This document shows positions 3,441-10,240 of a stretch of 10,240 nt of DNA, piece after piece. The translations under genes and the position numbers were made by a program. How positions within the stretch are numbered: the stretch's first letter is position 1; every line of letters begins with the position of its first letter. Origin of the DNA: a virus (taxonomy: Duplodnaviria; Heunggongvirae; Uroviricota; Caudoviricetes); IMG/VR virus record IMGVR_UViG_2778261087_000006. One strand, 5' to 3'. The notes beneath the pieces were generated by a model. The model saw only the letters and a program-made list of their open reading frames with translations, searched no databases and had not been told where the DNA came from.

Positions 3441-3455
3441 TTACCTATTGGGTAA
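3441..3455. promoter_or_regulatory. Operator-like site TTACC-tattg-GGTAA
   Basis: Perfect palindrome arms. About 55 bp upstream of the repressor-like gene start, in the position of an autoregulatory (pRM-type) operator. Confidence 0.5.
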
Positions 3456-3510: not shown

Positions 3511-4095
3511 ATGAAAAGTATCCAGGACGTCCGCAGGCAAAATCTCAACGACTTGATCGACCGTGAATTCAATGGTGTTCAGACGCGGATGGCAGAAAAA
3601 CTTGGAACTCAGGCAAATCTGGTAAACCGCTGGGCTCTTGGCAAGAAGGTTATCGGCGACCAGGTTGCGCGAAAAATTGAAGCTGCCGCCAATAAACCCC
3701 GTAACTGGCTTGATATCGATCGCTCGCTTTCTCAGGAAGGTTTTCAGCCTGTCGGCCCAAGCGACATTGGTCAGCTGGCGGCTCACAACCTAGAACGCTG
3801 GATGAGCGAAAGCCGCGACCTTTCAACGCAGGGAAAACTTCACCGCGCATCCGGCGTCGCCCAGGTGACAATCAGCCGCCTGTTAAACAATGAGGTCAGT
3901 GTTTCCATTTCCACCCTGGAGAATGTTGCATCCGCATTCGGGCGTCACGGCTATGAATTACTGATTCACCCGCACGACCCTGCGACCATCAACTATGACC
4001 GCTCGCGCTACGCATTGTTACCTGAAACAGAGAAGGCAAAGATCGAAAGTTACATTGAATTTGTCATCAGCCAGAACGAAAAAAACAAACAATAA
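3511..4095 (+). CDS. Putative prophage repressor (CI-position), 194 aa, two predicted HTH domains, no S24 peptidase domain
   Basis: Complete ORF divergent from the Cro-like gene and followed by a strong terminator, then the pL-like promoter. N-terminal Cro/YdaS-like HTH (...GVQTRMAEKLGTQANLVNRW...) and a second XRE-like HTH (...ASGVAQVTISRLLNNEVSVSISTLENVA...). No obvious SD before the ATG, which resembles leaderless or weakly initiated cI genes. Confidence 0.65.
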   Translation: MKSIQDVRRQNLNDLIDREFNGVQTRMAEKLGTQANLVNRWALGKKVIGDQVARKIEAAANKPRNWLDIDRSLSQEGFQPVGPSDIGQLAAHNLERWMSESRDLSTQGKLHRASGVAQVTISRLLNNEVSVSISTLENVASAFGRHGYELLIHPHDPATINYDRSRYALLPETEKAKIESYIEFVISQNEKNKQ

Positions 4096-4116: not shown

Positions 4117-4141
4117 AAGCCGCCTCATGGCGGCTTTTTTA
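4117..4141 (+). terminator. Rho-independent terminator downstream of the repressor-like gene
   Basis: 8-bp GC-rich stem AAGCCGCC / GGCGGCTT with loop TCAT, followed by a run of 6-7 T. Lies 22 nt after the stop codon. Confidence 0.7.
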
Positions 4142-4153
4142 TTGCCTGTGCGA

Positions 4154-4168
4154 TTACCTGATGGGTAA
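4154..4168. promoter_or_regulatory. Operator-like site TTACC-tgatg-GGTAA
   Basis: Perfect palindrome arms, 20 bp upstream of the -35 of the pL-like promoter. Confidence 0.5.
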
Positions 4169-4187: not shown

Positions 4188-4216
4188 TTGACATCAAACC
4201 AGATACGCATAATTAT
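4188..4216 (+). promoter_or_regulatory. pL-like promoter for the plus-strand early operon
   Basis: Consensus -35 TTGACA at 4188-4193. Candidate -10 AATTAT at 4211-4216 with 17-bp spacer (CATAAT at 4208-4213 is an alternative). The operator-like site at 4216-4230 overlaps the -10/+1 region. Confidence 0.5.
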
Positions 4217-4230
4217 TACCTCAACGGTAA
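4216..4230. promoter_or_regulatory. Operator-like site TTACC-tcaac-GGTAA
   Basis: Perfect palindrome arms overlapping the -10/start region of the pL-like promoter. An extra GGTAAC half-site follows at 4239-4244. Confidence 0.5.
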
Positions 4231-4249: not shown

Positions 4250-4411
4250 ATGCAGTGGAAAATCATCAACGGTTGGTACTGCGTTACTGCATGCGGATTC
4301 ATGAGCTGGAAGTTCCGCACCTTACAGGAAGGCATTAAGTGGGCTTTCGTCAGCAAAGAAGCTCGCGATGTGGCCAACGATAACGAGATATGGGAGGAGG
4401 TTAGCAAATGA
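4250..4411 (+). CDS. Small ORF, 53 aa, first gene of the pL-like operon (not in the ORF track)
   Basis: ATG at 4250 with GAGG 10 nt upstream. Translated by hand without internal stops: MQWKIINGWYCVTACGFMSWKFRTLQEGIKWAFVSKEARDVANDNEIWEEVSK. Its TGA overlaps the ATG of the next gene (ATGA at 4408-4411). Competes with the opposite-strand track ORF 4216-4407. Confidence 0.4.
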   Translation: MQWKIINGWYCVTACGFMSWKFRTLQEGIKWAFVSKEARDVANDNEIWEEVSK

Positions 4412-5442
4412 GTGAATTATCAATCATCGAAATCACACCAGATATGGCACCAAGAATTTACGTTGAAAAAGGACTGGAAAAGTTTCTCGAGCAGATCCGT
4501 GAAGGTGTTAATGAAGTGCCTGACATTAGCACAGACAAAGGCAGAAAGCGCATTGCATCTCTGGCTGCGAAGGTTTCAAGAAGTAAAACAGCGGTAGAAA
4601 AACCAGGACGTGATTATCTGAAACGCCTGAAAGAACAGCCGAAAGTAGTTGAAGCAGAGTTACGACGCTTCGTAACCGAATGCGATCGGCTTCGTGATGA
4701 AGTACGCCGCCCACTCACCAAGTGGGAAAATGCTGAGAAATTACGCACTGAAGCACTGCAACAACGCCTGACAAATTTGCGAGCACTGGCTGACGTGATC
4801 GATCTCTCCGGAAACTACTTGCCATCAACTGATATTCAGGAACGAATTCAAGAGGCTAAATCAGTAGCACTTGATGAGAGTTGGCAGGAGTACGCAGCAG
4901 AAGCTGGAGTAGCCAAGGATTCAACCATCCAGAAACTGGAAGAATCACTCGCAGTAGCTCAAAAACGCGAGCATGAAGCCGCTGAGCTGGAGAGACTTCG
5001 CAAAGAAGCGGAGGAAAAAGCGCGCATTGAGCGAGAAGAGAATATCCGCCGGGAAGCTGCTGAACAGGCCAGGCTCGAAGCTGAACAAAAAGCGAAAGCT
5101 GAAATTGATGCTGCGGCACGCCTAGCGGCGGAAGAGAAAGCACGTGCTGAAGTAGCAGAACGTCAGCGAATTGAAGCAGAGCAGCGTGCACGACGCGAAA
5201 AAGAAGAAGCCGTTGCCGAGGAACGCCGACGCCAAGAGGAGGCAGAAAAAGCCCGCATTGAAGAACAGAAGCGTATCGCCGACGAAGAAGCGCGCCGAGC
5301 TGCGGATAAAGAGCATCGCCGTACCGTTAACCGCAGAGTAATCGCAGATCTGATAGCCCAAGGCATTCCCGAAGAATTCGCGCAGAAAGCAATGTTGGCT
5401 ATCGCTGGCGGCAAAGTGCAGGACGCGTATATCAAATATTGA
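4408..5442 (+). CDS. Coiled-coil protein, 344 aa, with a long E/A/R/K-rich charged helical repeat region (TolA-like composition only); function unknown
   Basis: Complete ORF with strong RBS GGGAGGAGG 7 nt upstream. C-terminal half is dominated by EAEQ/ARAE/ERRR repeats from a purine-rich DNA stretch (about 4980-5320). Sits in the accessory position just after pL. Confidence 0.8.
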   Translation: MSELSIIEITPDMAPRIYVEKGLEKFLEQIREGVNEVPDISTDKGRKRIASLAAKVSRSKTAVEKPGRDYLKRLKEQPKVVEAELRRFVTECDRLRDEVRRPLTKWENAEKLRTEALQQRLTNLRALADVIDLSGNYLPSTDIQERIQEAKSVALDESWQEYAAEAGVAKDSTIQKLEESLAVAQKREHEAAELERLRKEAEEKARIEREENIRREAAEQARLEAEQKAKAEIDAAARLAAEEKARAEVAERQRIEAEQRARREKEEAVAEERRRQEEAEKARIEEQKRIADEEARRAADKEHRRTVNRRVIADLIAQGIPEEFAQKAMLAIAGGKVQDAYIKY

Positions 5443-5449
5443 GGTGGGT

Positions 5450-5749
5450 ATGAACGTTAATCAGCAGAAAAATCTTCAAAAAATCATGCTGGCATTCGAC
5501 AAGGACTACCGCCTGTCAGAACAGCTATATGACCGACAAGTTGAACTGATTGAGAGTATCCGGCTTCATCAACTGGCATCAACTTTCGACGTTGTAACAG
5601 TTAAAGGCGTTCGCCAGGAAGTACTGGAGGCCGCTAAAGACAGCCCTGAGTTCGAAGAACTAATGGATGCCTACCGGCGCGAGGCAATGGCAATTATCGC
5701 CCGCTGGGATCTGGCTGATCAGATTGATGGGCAGAGGGACGCGGCATGA
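5450..5749 (+). CDS. Small protein, 99 aa, at the Gam position; possible Gam-like host-nuclease inhibitor
   Basis: ATG at 5450 with GAGGTGGG upstream, and the stop overlaps the exonuclease ATG (ATGA at 5746-5749). Weak local resemblance to remembered lambda Gam C-terminus (DSPEFEELMDAYRREAMAIIA versus [21 protein letters not shown]). Sits just upstream of the exonuclease/annealase pair. Confidence 0.6.
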   Translation: MNVNQQKNLQKIMLAFDKDYRLSEQLYDRQVELIESIRLHQLASTFDVVTVKGVRQEVLEAAKDSPEFEELMDAYRREAMAIIARWDLADQIDGQRDAA

Positions 5750-6567
5750 ATCCGGGAATTTATTTCGATATCAGCAACGAGGACTACCACGCCGGTGACG
5801 GCGTGAGTAAGTCGCAGCTAGATATGGTGGCTAAGAACCCTGCCCTTCTGAAATGGGTGAAGGCTGCTCCGGAAGACGAAGAGAAGAAGTCTGCACTGGA
5901 CATGGGTACTGCTCTGCACTGTCTGCTTCTGGAACCTGGAGAGTTTGACAAACGCTTCATCGTTTCACCGAAATTCGATCGTCGGACAAAACAAGGTAAA
6001 GCTGACGAAGAGGCATTTATTCGTGATGTAGCGGATATGGGGATTTCGGTACTTGATGCAGAGCAGTGGCGAAAACTGGAGCTGATGCGTGATAGCGCAA
6101 TGGCTCACCCGGCGGCACGCTGGATGTTGGAAGCACCTGGTTACTGCGAAGCATCAATGTACTGGAACGATGAAGATACGGGTGAGTTGTGCCGAATTCG
6201 TCCAGACAAATGGCTGAACGAGCACAACGTGATCGTCGACGTGAAAAAGGTTGCAGATATGGACCGTTTTGCACGCCACATCGAGGAGTTCCGCTACCAC
6301 GTGCAGGACGCAATGTACCGCGAAGGCGCAATGAGGGTTACTGGTCAGCCACATGGTTTTTTCTTTCTTGCCGTGAGCGAAAGCATTGATTGTGGTCGGT
6401 ATCCGGTACGCGTGTTCGAGCTGGATGCGCCGGATGTCGATGCCGGGCACGCTCTGTTCCGCCGGGATCTGAATACCTATCACGAATGCCGCATCAACGA
6501 TGAATGGGGCGGAGTGGAAATTATTAAACGCCCTGACTGGGCACGTAAACAGGATATGTACGTATGA
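5746..6567 (+). CDS. PD-(D/E)XK-family exonuclease (RecE-catalytic-domain-like; often annotated exodeoxyribonuclease VIII), 273 aa
   Basis: Catalytic-type motif ...CRIRPDKWLNEHNVIVDVKKV... (PD ... D-x-K). RBS AGAGGGA 6 nt upstream. Translationally coupled to the downstream annealase gene (ATGA at 6564-6567). Confidence 0.8.
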   Translation: MNPGIYFDISNEDYHAGDGVSKSQLDMVAKNPALLKWVKAAPEDEEKKSALDMGTALHCLLLEPGEFDKRFIVSPKFDRRTKQGKADEEAFIRDVADMGISVLDAEQWRKLELMRDSAMAHPAARWMLEAPGYCEASMYWNDEDTGELCRIRPDKWLNEHNVIVDVKKVADMDRFARHIEEFRYHVQDAMYREGAMRVTGQPHGFFFLAVSESIDCGRYPVRVFELDAPDVDAGHALFRRDLNTYHECRINDEWGGVEIIKRPDWARKQDMYV

Positions 6568-7445
6568 GCAATGATATCGCAATCACATCACAACCAGGCG
6601 CAACTGTAGGCACTGCTGCGGCAATCTTCAGCCCCGAGGGCATGAATCAACTGGTGCGTTTCGCGGAGTTGATGTCACAAAGCAAAGCGACTGTACCGAA
6701 ACATCTTGAAGGCAAACCTGCCGATTGCCTGGCGGTGACCATGCAGGCGGCACAGTGGGGAATGAACCCGTTCGCCGTGGCGCAGAAAACGCATGTGGTA
6801 AACGGAACGTTAGGCTACGAAGCACAGTTGGTAAACGCGGTCGTATCCTCTTCCAGCCTGCTGGCGACACGCCTGAATTATCGCTGGAGCGGTGACTGGT
6901 CGAATGTTAACGGCAAAACAGATAAATCACCTAATCTGACGGTAACTGTGTCAGCAGTTCTTAAAGGAGAAGCAGAACCACGTGAGCTTACCATCAGTAT
7001 GGCGCAAGCCGGAGTGCGTAACTCTCCATTGTGGGAACAGGATCCGCGCCAGCAGCTTGCCTATCTTTGCACGAAACGATGGGCTCGCCTGCACGCTCCT
7101 GATGTACTTCTCGGTGTTTACACACCAGACGAATTACAGGAAACGGCACCGCGCGTTGAGCGAGACATTACTCCGCAAACGACCACTGCTGCGGGAATGA
7201 ACAGTCTGATCAACGCTAAAACAGTGAAAAAGCCTGATGAGCAAACGCGTAAAGCGGATAGCCGTGATCCAGAAGAAATGCTGATGGCCTTTACCAGCGC
7301 AGCGATGAATTACAGCACTGTCTCCGAACTAGATAAGGCTTACAAATACATTGCACAAAAACTTTCAGATGATGACGAACTACTGGCAAAAGCCACCGAC
7401 GTTTACAGCGTTCGCCGGGAAGAATTAAACGAAACATCTATGTAA
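6564..7445 (+). CDS. RecT/Redbeta-superfamily single-strand annealing protein, 293 aa
   Basis: Paired with the upstream exonuclease. Local resemblance to remembered lambda Bet (...QWGMNPFAVAQKTHVV... versus ...QYGLNPWTKEIYAF...). Exact subfamily not resolved. Confidence 0.75.
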   Translation: MSNDIAITSQPGATVGTAAAIFSPEGMNQLVRFAELMSQSKATVPKHLEGKPADCLAVTMQAAQWGMNPFAVAQKTHVVNGTLGYEAQLVNAVVSSSSLLATRLNYRWSGDWSNVNGKTDKSPNLTVTVSAVLKGEAEPRELTISMAQAGVRNSPLWEQDPRQQLAYLCTKRWARLHAPDVLLGVYTPDELQETAPRVERDITPQTTTAAGMNSLINAKTVKKPDEQTRKADSRDPEEMLMAFTSAAMNYSTVSELDKAYKYIAQKLSDDDELLAKATDVYSVRREELNETSM

Positions 7446-7852: not shown

Positions 7853-8152
7853 GTGAGAAAGTTAAGCCGACTTGAAAAATATCACATGAACAAAGTTTCA
7901 ATGCGCAGCCATTCAAAGGTTGTTGCCGTTACTCCTGCGGCGATAGAGATCGAAAAACGCGCGATTGAAAGAGAGAAAAAAGGGCGGTTCCGCATTGCCG
8001 CCCACCTTTGGCTTCAGTGTATGGATGTTGCTTCTGGTGATGTTGAGCGTGCAAGGATCGCGGTTCGCAGGGACCAATGTATCACAAAAGGTAACGGCCT
8101 TCGCCGTGGCGACTATAGCGGCATAGGATGTTGTGGGGTGGTTTATGACTAA
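7853..8152 (+). CDS. Hypothetical protein, up to 99 aa, upstream of and overlapping the methyltransferase gene
   Basis: GTG at 7853 with GAGAGGG 9 nt upstream, and alternative ATGs at 7886 and 7901. Stop TAA at 8150-8152 overlaps the methyltransferase ATG at 8145 by 8 nt. No family recognised. Confidence 0.55.
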   Translation: MRKLSRLEKYHMNKVSMRSHSKVVAVTPAAIEIEKRAIEREKKGRFRIAAHLWLQCMDVASGDVERARIAVRRDQCITKGNGLRRGDYSGIGCCGVVYD

Positions 8153-8795
8153 GAAATACACACTAATCTATGCAGATCCACCTTGGGTATACCGGGACAA
8201 AGCCGCAGATGGTAATCGCGGTGCCGGTTTTAAATATCCGGTTATGAGTGTGCTGGATATCTGCCGCCTTCCTGTGTGGGATTTGGCCGATGAAAACTGT
8301 CTGTTGGCCATGTGGTGGGTGCCAACACAACCACTCGAAGCACTAAAAGTTGTTGAAGCCTGGGGATTCCGTCTGATGACCATGAAGGGCTTCACGTGGA
8401 TAAAATGTGGTAGTCGACAACCAGATAAACTGGTTATGGGTATGGGACACATGACTCGCGCCAATAGTGAAGATTGCCTGTTTGCAGTAAAGGGAAAACT
8501 ACCTACGCGCATTAATGCAGGGATCGTTCAGTCATTTACCGCACCGCGGCTTGAGCATTCAAGAAAACCAGATATCGTTCGTGAAAAACTTGTGCAATTG
8601 TTAGGCGATGTTTCTCGCATTGAACTGTTCGCCCGCCAGTCGTCTCATGGTTTCGATGTTTGGGGTAATCAGTGCGAAGACCCGGCAGTGCAACTACACC
8701 CTGGATACGCGTTGGATATTGCCAGATTAACAAATGCATTCAGCAATGCTCCGCTGTCACCAACAGACAACCAGGGGCGGGAGCGTGCAGCATGA
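8145..8795 (+). CDS. MT-A70-family DNA N6-adenine methyltransferase, 216 aa
   Basis: N-terminal MTKKYTLIYADPPW carries the DPPW catalytic motif typical of MT-A70 phage methylases. The track ORF begins at an upstream GTG (8133); ATG 8145 is preferred, with GGTGG/GGGG just upstream. Confidence 0.85.
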   Translation: MTKKYTLIYADPPWVYRDKAADGNRGAGFKYPVMSVLDICRLPVWDLADENCLLAMWWVPTQPLEALKVVEAWGFRLMTMKGFTWIKCGSRQPDKLVMGMGHMTRANSEDCLFAVKGKLPTRINAGIVQSFTAPRLEHSRKPDIVREKLVQLLGDVSRIELFARQSSHGFDVWGNQCEDPAVQLHPGYALDIARLTNAFSNAPLSPTDNQGRERAA

Positions 8796-8989: not shown

Positions 8990-10240
8990 TTATTCCCCCG
9001 CCATCCACTTCTCAAACTTCGACGGGGAGAACGGAATCAGATCCGTATGCTCCCCGTTAATCCAGGAATCAATCATATCGGCCCACTGCTGCAACATGTA
9101 GGCGCGCTGTCTGGCGTATTCCGCTTTGTTATATACGGCGCGCACACCTTTCTGCTCATGTGCCAGAGCCTTTTCAATCCAGTCTGAAGGATAACCAGCC
9201 TCATGCAACAACGTACTGGCTGTACGGCGCATATCGTGTACGGTGAAATCCTGAATATGCTCACCATCTTCATTTATTATTTTCACCGTTCTGTCGATCA
9301 GAGAGTTCAGCGCGGCATTAGATAATGGCTTCCGGAAATTGTAACGACCAGGAACCAGATATTCATTTCCACCAGCGCACATCTGCAACCCGACCAATAT
9401 ATCCTGAGCCTGTTTAGGCAGGTAAATAACATGCGCCCGGCTTCCCTTCATGCGGTCTGAAGGAATTGTCCATGTCCATTTTTTAAAATCTATTTCATCC
9501 CACGTTGCATTGGTGAATTCGCCCTTACGAACCATAGTGATAAGCACCAGTTTTAAAGCCATTTTCATAGTGCCCATAGCACCAATGGCATCCAACGTGC
9601 GGAAGAACAGGCCAATTTCTTCTGGTGTCAGTGTTCGCTCTCGTGGTTTAAATATGGCGATAGACGAAGGCTTAATGTCAGCCGCAGGATTAAACAAACC
9701 ATGACCACGGTCATTGGCGTGACGGTATACGCTGCTGATGATCTCCCTGGCCTGCACTGCTGTTGCCCGGCCACCGCGTTCGACAATCCGGTCACACAAA
9801 TCACGAACCATCGATGTGGTAATTTCAGCCATCATTTTGTTGCCAAGAACCGGAAGTATGTCACGGTCGATCACTGCCTGCTTCATTGCGCGGGTACTTT
9901 CAGCCAGGATGACGTGTTTCATATAACTGTCGGTATGTACCGCAAACGTTTCGGCACCACGAATCTTTTTGATGCCGTCACGTTTAGCAGCAGCCGGTGA
10001 CTGGCCTGCTTTAAGCAGCTTCTTTGCAGCAATCAGTTCTTCTCGCGCTTCTGCCAGGCTGATACCGTCACGCCCATACTGCCCGATTACCAGTGTTTCG
10101 CGGCGACCGTTGATACGGTAGTCATAGCGAAACGAGACCGTACCTGACGTAAGCACAGCTACATACAGCCCGTCACGATCGGAGACCTTGTACAGTTTGT
10201 CCTGCGGCTTGAGGTTTTTTAATTTTGTATCGGTAAGCAC
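8990..10240 (-). CDS. int: Tyrosine recombinase / phage integrase (P4-type, N-terminal arm-binding domain), 416 aa
   Basis: N-terminus MLTDTKLKNLKPQDKLYKVSDRDGLYVAV... aligns with remembered P4-family integrase N-termini, and the catalytic-domain Y/R/H signature lies toward the C-terminus (...HDMRRTASTLLHEAGY...). First codon is GTG exactly at the window edge (10240-10238), so the upstream RBS and att site are not visible. Confidence 0.9.
   Translation of the reverse strand: MLTDTKLKNLKPQDKLYKVSDRDGLYVAVLTSGTVSFRYDYRINGRRETLVIGQYGRDGISLAEAREELIAAKKLLKAGQSPAAAKRDGIKKIRGAETFAVHTDSYMKHVILAESTRAMKQAVIDRDILPVLGNKMMAEITTSMVRDLCDRIVERGGRATAVQAREIISSVYRHANDRGHGLFNPAADIKPSSIAIFKPRERTLTPEEIGLFFRTLDAIGAMGTMKMALKLVLITMVRKGEFTNATWDEIDFKKWTWTIPSDRMKGSRAHVIYLPKQAQDILVGLQMCAGGNEYLVPGRYNFRKPLSNAALNSLIDRTVKIINEDGEHIQDFTVHDMRRTASTLLHEAGYPSDWIEKALAHEQKGVRAVYNKAEYARQRAYMLQQWADMIDSWINGEHTDLIPFSPSKFEKWMAGE

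Follow-up and report, generated by a model that had tools for sequence, protein, structure and literature searches.

We examined a 10,240-nt stretch (the window) of the tailed-phage record IMGVR_UViG_2778261087_000006 from IMG/VR, and in it two overlapping plus-strand open reading frames (ORFs), one of 53 amino acids (aa) at 4250–4411 and one of 344 aa at 4408–5442. Both begin with ATG, with GAGG 9 nt upstream of the first and GGAGG 7 nt upstream of the second, and they overlap by ATGA. An earlier note, made from the sequence alone, had reported the two ORFs, their overlap and the strong ribosome-binding site of the longer one; the coordinates and the GGAGG were verified. Three more plus-strand genes follow directly: a gp38-like gene of 101 aa (5444–5749; PHROG 856, E = 5e-55), a RecE-like PD-(D/E)XK exonuclease of the DUF3799 type (5746–6567; Pfam PF12684, E = 2.5e-22; PHROG 412, exonuclease VIII) and a RecT single-strand annealing protein (SSAP; 6564–7445; Pfam PF03837, E = 1e-31; PHROG 561). 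As judged by profile match, the 344-aa protein is an ordinary member of an existing, very large uncharacterised family, PHROG 1376, and genes of this family were found beside phage recombination modules throughout our sample.

Along its whole length the window shares 98% identity with Escherichia phage phiv142-3; its flanks are 96% identical to phiV10 and relatives. On sequence, then, the source prophage is a Uetakevirus (an epsilon15/phiV10-like podovirus) and not lambdoid, as had been assumed. Since the closest phages are all Uetakevirus, the accompanying expectation of N, Ral, Kil and cIII used the wrong reference frame. It had been said that neither protein is any of these four, and Pfam agreed, giving no match to either at E ≤ 0.1. 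NCBIfam, PADLOC and PDB, searched with both sequences, likewise gave nothing significant. The two had been called the least explained genes of the window, and within their operon they remain so.

The 53-aa gene, first of the Uetakevirus early-left operon, is a homologue of phiV10 p39 and epsilon15 p37. Its product matched PHROG 898 at E = 3.2e-38, with residues 1–49 on profile positions 1–49 of 50. The gene occupies the same slot as p39, first after the repressor terminator, and its first 36 codons are identical in DNA to those of phiV10. The last few codons differ (EEVSK* in the window, EG* in phiV10) because the downstream junction differs. The ORF had been called unannotated, but it is Orf44 in phiv142-3 and p39 in phiV10, where it is noted as similar to epsilon15p37, and a 'hypothetical protein' was annotated beneath the match in 20/20 sampled Escherichia coli RefSeq rows. 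Among 5.8 billion proteins searched, only 32 clusters matched it, and the names, where given, indicate Enterobacteriaceae hosts (Escherichia, Salmonella, Klebsiella, Hafnia and Enterobacter). In 22 aligned homologues, 17 of the first 25 residues were invariant (1–3, 6–16, 18, 21 and 25; MQWKIINGWYCVTACG.MS.K...L), while the tail was variable. When 26 distinct DNA alleles were compared, the variable sites of the first 36 codons were distributed 8/8/20 by codon position; pairwise, the small ORF differed from those of BUCT554 and Salmonella phages by 6–11 synonymous and 5–7 non-synonymous codon changes. The third-position excess and the synonymous changes indicate purifying selection on a translated product. 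From these comparisons we take the 53-aa ORF to be a real, conserved Uetakevirus early gene.

The small protein is soluble and contains Trp and Cys. It lacks an arginine-rich motif, as stated before, and its 7 Lys and Arg residues are unclustered. The AlphaFold2 (AF2) model reached a predicted local distance difference test score (pLDDT) of 57, was uninformative and was not used. A candidate RNA element in the leader and the 5' end of the small ORF was rejected: there was no Rfam match in the window, the fold z-score was -1.14, and the DNA invariance of codons 1–12 that had hinted at such an element vanished once more alleles were sampled.

Relative to phiV10, the 344-aa gene lies in an inserted cassette of roughly 1.05 kb (~4398–5451, plus strand) between the small ORF and the gp38-like gene. 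Junction alignment placed the end of phiV10 homology after ...GATATGGGAG (~4397) and its restart at ATGAACGTTAATCAG, the ATG of the gp38-like gene (~5452); E. coli matches to the leader also end at ~4397. The small ORF runs straight on to the gp38-like gene, without the 344-aa gene, in phiV10, BUCT554 and most relatives. Of 5426 complete E. coli genomes, 558 carried the leader and small ORF but only 35 the 344-aa gene, equal to ~6% of the prophages with the leader. It is annotated as Orf45 in phiv142-3 and as 'hypothetical' or 'coiled-coil domain-containing protein' in E. coli RefSeq. GC content at third codon positions (GC3) was 0.40 in the 344-aa gene, against 0.50–0.65 in flanking genes. 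By its junctions and its distribution, the 344-aa gene is an optional cassette inserted ahead of the recombination module.

The ATGA overlap thus arose because the cassette was inserted at a gene junction. The stop of the small ORF overlaps or abuts the start of whichever gene comes next, by ATGA in the window, GTGA in BUCT554 and TGATAATG in phiV10, so translational coupling belongs to the position and not to a specific partner. Earlier the two genes had been described as coupled; the overlap stands, but a functional pair does not, given the counts of 558 and 35 genomes and the abundance of the 344-aa family in phages without the small ORF, where it is widespread. We also considered that both ORFs might form a dedicated two-gene unit, for superinfection exclusion or with an envelope-associated, TolA-like role. 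The overlap and the position of the two as first genes of the operon would suit such a unit, as would the names 'TolA protein' or 'cell envelope biogenesis protein' often borne by homologues of the 344-aa protein in phage records. However, the genes are not co-inherited, neither protein has a transmembrane segment (maximum 19-residue Kyte–Doolittle hydropathy 0.78 and 0.57), and Pfam, which matched neither, found no TolA. The two-gene reading is thus largely refuted, and we consider it highly improbable.

The PHROG 1376 family and its three-part proteins

The 344-aa protein matched PHROG 1376 at E = 1.6e-120, with residues 2–344 on profile positions 5–362 of 362. Besides phiv142-3 Orf45, this PHROG includes Pseudomonas phage JBD44 gp65 ('TolA protein') and MR13 gp38c. 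Searched with the N-terminal 200 residues, the family comprised 5094 clusters (50% identity) at E ≤ 1e-3 and 2965 at E ≤ 1e-10. Homologues occurred in 180 phage records, mostly of Pseudomonas, Vibrio, Escherichia, Klebsiella, Erwinia, Yersinia, Acinetobacter and Shewanella. The family lacks a Pfam or NCBIfam model, and Pfam, NCBIfam and PADLOC gave no match for the window protein or for 58 other members. No functional study turned up in a literature search on PHROG 1376, phiv142-3, DUF1351, DUF2483 and TolA with Erf.

A three-part plan was conserved in an alignment of 51 divergent members: an N-terminal domain of ~190 aa, a charged helix of variable length, and a C-terminal segment of ~45 aa. 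In the window protein the N-terminal domain spans aa 1–185 (4408–4962, plus strand) and is predicted to be an elongated helical bundle with conserved basic residues. Within it G45, K60, R100 and P102 are invariant in the alignment, and many basic residues are conserved. The charged helix follows at aa 186–305 (4963–5322, plus strand). The conserved C-terminal mini-domain, aa 306–344 (5323–5442, plus strand), has the consensus ...HRxxINxxAxxxxxxGxxExxAKxxVxAIAxGxIPxVxIxY; it ends in ...I.Y, and the terminal Tyr is nearly invariant across the family.

AF2, run with a 43-sequence alignment, gave a confident all-helical model of the 344-aa protein (pLDDT 87.8). An AlphaFold check of both proteins had been proposed earlier, and of the two only this model was informative. 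Its elements are a long hairpin (helices 43–73 and 78–126), a short insert, a continuous helix (157–317) that includes the charged segment, and a final short helix (322–333). Foldseek on PDB with this model reached a best E-value of 0.059, and a fold search in BFVD found uncharacterised relatives only. Sequence and profile searches of PDB with the family gave weak, low-complexity matches to the charged helix only; the best match of the family profile was a stretch of myosin VI that forms a single alpha-helix (SAH). Across these sequence and fold searches there was no confident homology of the 344-aa protein to a structural or housekeeping family. With the conservation of the small ORF, this means that neither of the outcomes named beforehand as refuting the earlier note was seen.

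Composition and model both confirm the earlier description of the C-terminal half as a long helix rich in E, A, R and K. Residues 186–305 are 28% E, 23% A, 20% R and 8% K. The label 'coiled-coil' fared less well. Only 12 of these 120 residues are strong hydrophobics, the a and d positions are filled by hydrophobics at 5/34 in the best register, and a 3.5-residue periodicity is lacking, all of it unlike a canonical heptad coiled coil. Opposite-charge pairs at i/i+4 numbered 41, against 20.5 ± 3.5 in shuffled sequences (~6 standard deviations), and 0 of 2000 shuffles reached 41. By these sequence measures the helix carries an ER/K-type SAH signature. Its length varies between homologues, which fits a semi-rigid spacer; modelled as such, it would be ~18 nm long, or 24 nm for the whole helix.

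The C-terminal mini-domain gave a weak profile similarity to RuvA domain III, at E = 0.035–0.17 with an E. coli-type sequence and 0.57 with that of Thermus. Pfam's RuvA_C did not match it, and only scattered weak matches to UBA_7, UBA_8 and HHH were seen.

Recombination modules and candidate functions

Gene neighbourhood is the one strong functional signal for the family. We took 80 IMG/VR loci, of which 4 were cut by contig ends; in all 76 with at least 600 bp downstream, an SSAP or exonuclease gene starts within ~1.5 kb, a count that overstates independence because the sampled loci are phylogenetically related. The arrangements included RecT with DUF3799, RecT with YqaJ, Erf with SSB, and Erf with an exonuclease. 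Named phages extend the range. The neighbours are Erf and an exonuclease in JBD44; a Sak4-type ATPase, DUF669 and an exonuclease in MR13; ExoVIII and Bet in Shewanella 1/41; and ExoVIII and an adjacent coil-containing protein in Vibrio 1.225.O. In phiARM81mr the order is permuted, to ExoVIII, RecT and then the family gene. Genomic and metagenomic contigs agreed, with RecT-YqaJ-SSB in Stutzerimonas, AAA_24 (Sak4-like) in Azotobacter, and ERF-YqaJ in a metagenomic contig. In phiv142-3, the orf45 transcript rises along with those of orf47 and orf48 (recE-like and recT) in serum-grown lysogens (PMC7724020 supplement).

At two loci, family proteins that share 97.5% identity have different neighbours, Erf at one and RecT at the other, which speaks for a common substrate or host partner and against one specific to the SSAP. 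True lambda Gam lies between the family gene and the SSAP in one locus (L082; PF06064, E = 2e-45), and P22 Arf does so in Erf-type loci (L042-type; PF17585, E = 8e-13). As Gam and Arf co-occur with the family, we read the family as an additional component and not a substitute.

These loci also bear on a Gam-like role for the 344-aa protein, in which, in the manner of lambda Gam or Mu Gam, it would inhibit the host nuclease RecBCD or shield DNA ends. The placement of the family gene directly upstream of SSAP/exonuclease modules is what such a role would predict, and in Firmicutes phages Mu Gam-like genes share the slot with DUF1351, DUF2483 and Gp157 (PMC8093625). Yet true Gam accompanies the family in L082, small Gam-like genes do so at many loci, and Abc2 does so in HK633; the 344-aa protein resembles Gam or Ku neither in sequence nor in fold; and in the window the Gam-sized slot is already held by the 101-aa gene. 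We regard a Gam-like role as quite unlikely.

Two side observations concern genes downstream of the family gene. The gp38-like gene (5444–5749) holds the slot and has the size of lambda Gam in related loci, and hhalign gave a weak match of its product to Gam residues 66–132 (probability 14%, P = 0.002); it could be a diverged or analogous host-nuclease inhibitor. Separately, three IMG/VR loci (L062, L063 and L079) encode a 170-aa protein (MHEMSETKTHYRKAFDSPYLSSADIV...) at ~+300 to +810 downstream of the family gene. It lies between a Gam-like gene and the YqaJ exonuclease, the usual place of RecT or Erf, and may be an unrecognised annealing or ssDNA-binding protein.

Invariant adjacency to recombination modules points to DNA recombination or DNA-end metabolism, instead of the exclusion or anti-defence function proposed at first. 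We therefore favour, with confidence about evenly balanced, the view that PHROG 1376 proteins assist phage recombination or DNA-end metabolism in an accessory capacity, whatever the SSAP type. In the mechanism we envisage, the conserved basic helical N-terminal domain would bind DNA or a DNA-bound complex. The rigid ER/K SAH, ~18–24 nm long, would serve as a spacer, holding out the small C-terminal helical-hairpin domain. That domain would dock a common partner, a host factor or DNA, and not a specific SSAP. This tether or adaptor mechanism commands less confidence than the link to recombination: the analysis shows that the genes are real, that the larger is a cassette, how its product is divided into domains and what lies beside it, whereas DNA binding, the tether role and the partner are inferred. 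A still more specific version would make PHROG 1376 a widespread but so far unrecognised fourth component of Red, RecET, Erf and Sak4 systems: a ~20-nm tether with its basic N-terminal bundle on DNA ends or intermediates and a RuvA domain III-like hairpin recruiting a host motor (RuvB or another AAA+ protein) or a replisome factor, coupling annealing to branch migration or replication restart. This version we think unlikely.

Several points weigh against a role in recombination or against the mechanism just described. The functional inference rests wholly on gene neighbourhood, and conserved gene order in early operons could place an unrelated early function here. The cassette is dispensable, being absent from ~94% of the related E. 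coli prophages. In HK633 a partial homologue sits four small genes away from erf. AF2 cannot discriminate between a lone monomeric helix and a charged coiled coil of two chains, and the RuvA domain III-like signal of the C-terminal domain is below threshold.

The main alternative is that the 344-aa protein is an independent early function of the 'moron' type, such as anti-defence or host takeover, riding a mosaic boundary through conserved order. Its presence/absence polymorphism (35 versus 558 E. coli genomes), sharp cassette junctions and deviant GC3 are as expected for such a gene; near-identical copies adjoin unrelated SSAPs, there is no homology to known recombination proteins, and the family co-occurs with Gam and Arf instead of replacing them. 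On the other hand, adjacency to the module holds across differing architectures and hosts (Pseudomonas, Vibrio, Shewanella, Aeromonas, Azotobacter and enterobacteria) and survives the permuted gene order of phiARM81mr. The family is also large and has a conserved three-part architecture, unlike typical anti-defence genes of narrow range. PADLOC, whose models cover defence systems and not anti-defence, gave no match at E ≤ 1 for the 53-aa, 344-aa or 101-aa proteins. We judge the moron-type explanation doubtful, though a real contender. The earlier proposals of superinfection exclusion, anti-defence or host-surface interaction gained no supporting evidence from PADLOC or from the search for transmembrane segments.

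Recombineering is built on Red, RecET, Erf and Sak4 modules, which also shape how phages become mosaic and how they evade host defences. A family of thousands of clusters that sits beside these modules whatever the SSAP, with neither a Pfam model nor a solved structure, is a testable gap. If the family modulates recombination or DNA-end handling, as we favour, it could improve recombineering and help explain how the modules work in vivo. For this window the outcome is more modest: both ORFs are ordinary members of uncharacterised families, and the lambdoid framing has been corrected to an epsilon15-like prophage.

Control region and other features of the window

Upstream of the 53-aa gene lies a gene for a repressor with two helix-turn-helix (HTH) domains (3511–4095; Pfam HTH_3). 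Its transcript would end at an intrinsic-terminator-like hairpin (4117–4136, plus strand) with an 8-bp stem of which 6 pairs are G-C, followed by a T run; a terminator is annotated at the equivalent position in phiV10. A sigma-70 promoter-like site for the early-left operon, TTGACA-17-AATTAT, matches 10/12 consensus positions (4188–4216, plus strand) and is kept in phiV10 and BUCT554.

A pattern search for TTACC-N5-GGTAA found five copies in the window, where 0.01 were expected by chance: at 1048–1062, 1110–1124, 3441–3455, 4154–4168 and 4216–4230. Two of these operator-like palindromes bracket the early-left promoter, TTACCTGATGGGTAA at 4154–4168 lying 5' of the -35 hexamer and TTACCTCAACGGTAA at 4216–4230 overlapping the -10 hexamer and the start region. 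The copy at 3441 is between the divergent cro-like and repressor genes. The first two are near DUF1064-like and replication genes, and this pair, around 1050–1125, suggests a third repressor-controlled promoter. Their number and placement indicate that the five palindromes are probably operators of the two-HTH repressor. Repressor gene, hairpin, promoter-like site and flanking palindromes together support the earlier placement of both ORFs as the first genes of a repressor-controlled early-left operon.

After RecT the gene order is an AlpA-type excisionase or regulator, PerC, an MT-A70 methylase and, on the opposite strand, an integrase. In the window the RecE-like nuclease and RecT (5746–7445) are separate, ATGA-overlapping genes, and likewise in phiv142-3 and BUCT554; the phiV10 record (L002, 4601–6361) has a single 586-aa RecE-RecT fusion there. 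This could be a real fusion, or a frameshift or annotation difference. The MT-A70 methylase (8133–8795, 220 aa) is intact in the window and a 279-nt fragment in the phiv142-3 record (L001). The integrase (8990–10240, at least 416 aa, running past the window end) is also intact and is split into two coding sequences in phiv142-3. Of the two, the prophage in the window may thus be the one in better condition, or the one whose sequence is more accurate.

Tandem DNA repeats were noted at 2323–2462 (12 bp ×2.4, 24 bp ×2.6 and 18 bp ×3.1). They fall within a minus-strand gene for a 271-aa replication-initiator-like protein (1944–2759) and encode the peptide repeat ...PENGNVPENGNIPKNGILNDPKNGMLNDPKNG.... 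By analogy with lambda O, they look like origin iterons inside an initiator gene. The best E. coli match to the region was NZ_CP076267.1 of strain NADC1036, a 38,709-bp plasmid-class record, together with the chromosome of the same strain. To all appearance this record is the prophage in excised, circular form, assembled apart from the chromosome.

Comparison with known systems

Compared with other members of PHROG 1376, the window protein shares the three-part architecture and the place beside recombination genes; nothing material differs.

The weak, sub-threshold resemblance to RuvA concerns the small C-terminal domain. Its profile aligned to residues 161–186 of E. coli RuvA, in the RuvB-binding, UBA-like hairpin of domain III, with the pattern a..AL.a.G....eA...V..Ia. 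Unlike in RuvA domain III, the third element predicted for the family domain is an extended segment and not a helix.

The charged helix shares with ER/K SAH spacers, such as the medial tail of myosin VI, and with TolA domain II an E/R/K/A-rich composition, the lack of a heptad core, an excess of salt bridges and a variable length. This is a likeness of physical type only, not homology, and the membrane anchor of TolA is absent from the 344-aa protein. TolA was rejected as an identity, there being no transmembrane segment (maximum 19-residue hydropathy 0.78) and no Pfam or NCBIfam TolA match; the name 'TolA' is due only to the A/E/K/R-rich helix.

Lambda Gam (PF06064) and P22 Arf (PF17585), which serve Red- and Erf-type modules as accessory proteins, resemble the family in where their genes lie, immediately before that of the annealing protein within the early-left operon. 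They are small, have no homology to the 344-aa family and co-occur with it in the same loci.

The closest parallels in position are in Firmicutes phages, where DUF1351, DUF2483, Gp157 or Mu Gam-like genes lie upstream of erf, sak4 or recT, and a functional analogy among these slot genes has been proposed (PMC8093625). DUF1351 (PF07083), DUF2483 and Sipho_Gp157 share with the 344-aa family the slot and the mid-sized protein, with no detectable homology; the DUF1351 protein compared, at 269 aa, is shorter than the 344-aa protein. One homologue (P0321) bears the UniRef name 'DUF1351 domain-containing protein'. DUF1351 membership was tried and rejected: the Pfam model matched neither the window protein nor 50 other aligned members nor 8 further ones scanned at E ≤ 10, and hhalign gave a probability below 1% both against an Enterococcus phage LG62 protein, itself verified as DUF1351 at E = 2e-18, and against a 15-sequence alignment, a shallow profile with an effective number of sequences (Neff) of 1.6. 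We therefore do not file the 344-aa protein as DUF1351. The family gene does lie directly upstream of the SSAP module in phage genomes, as the Firmicutes genes do, and by analogy of place the 344-aa family is the Proteobacteria positional counterpart of DUF1351, DUF2483 and Gp157.

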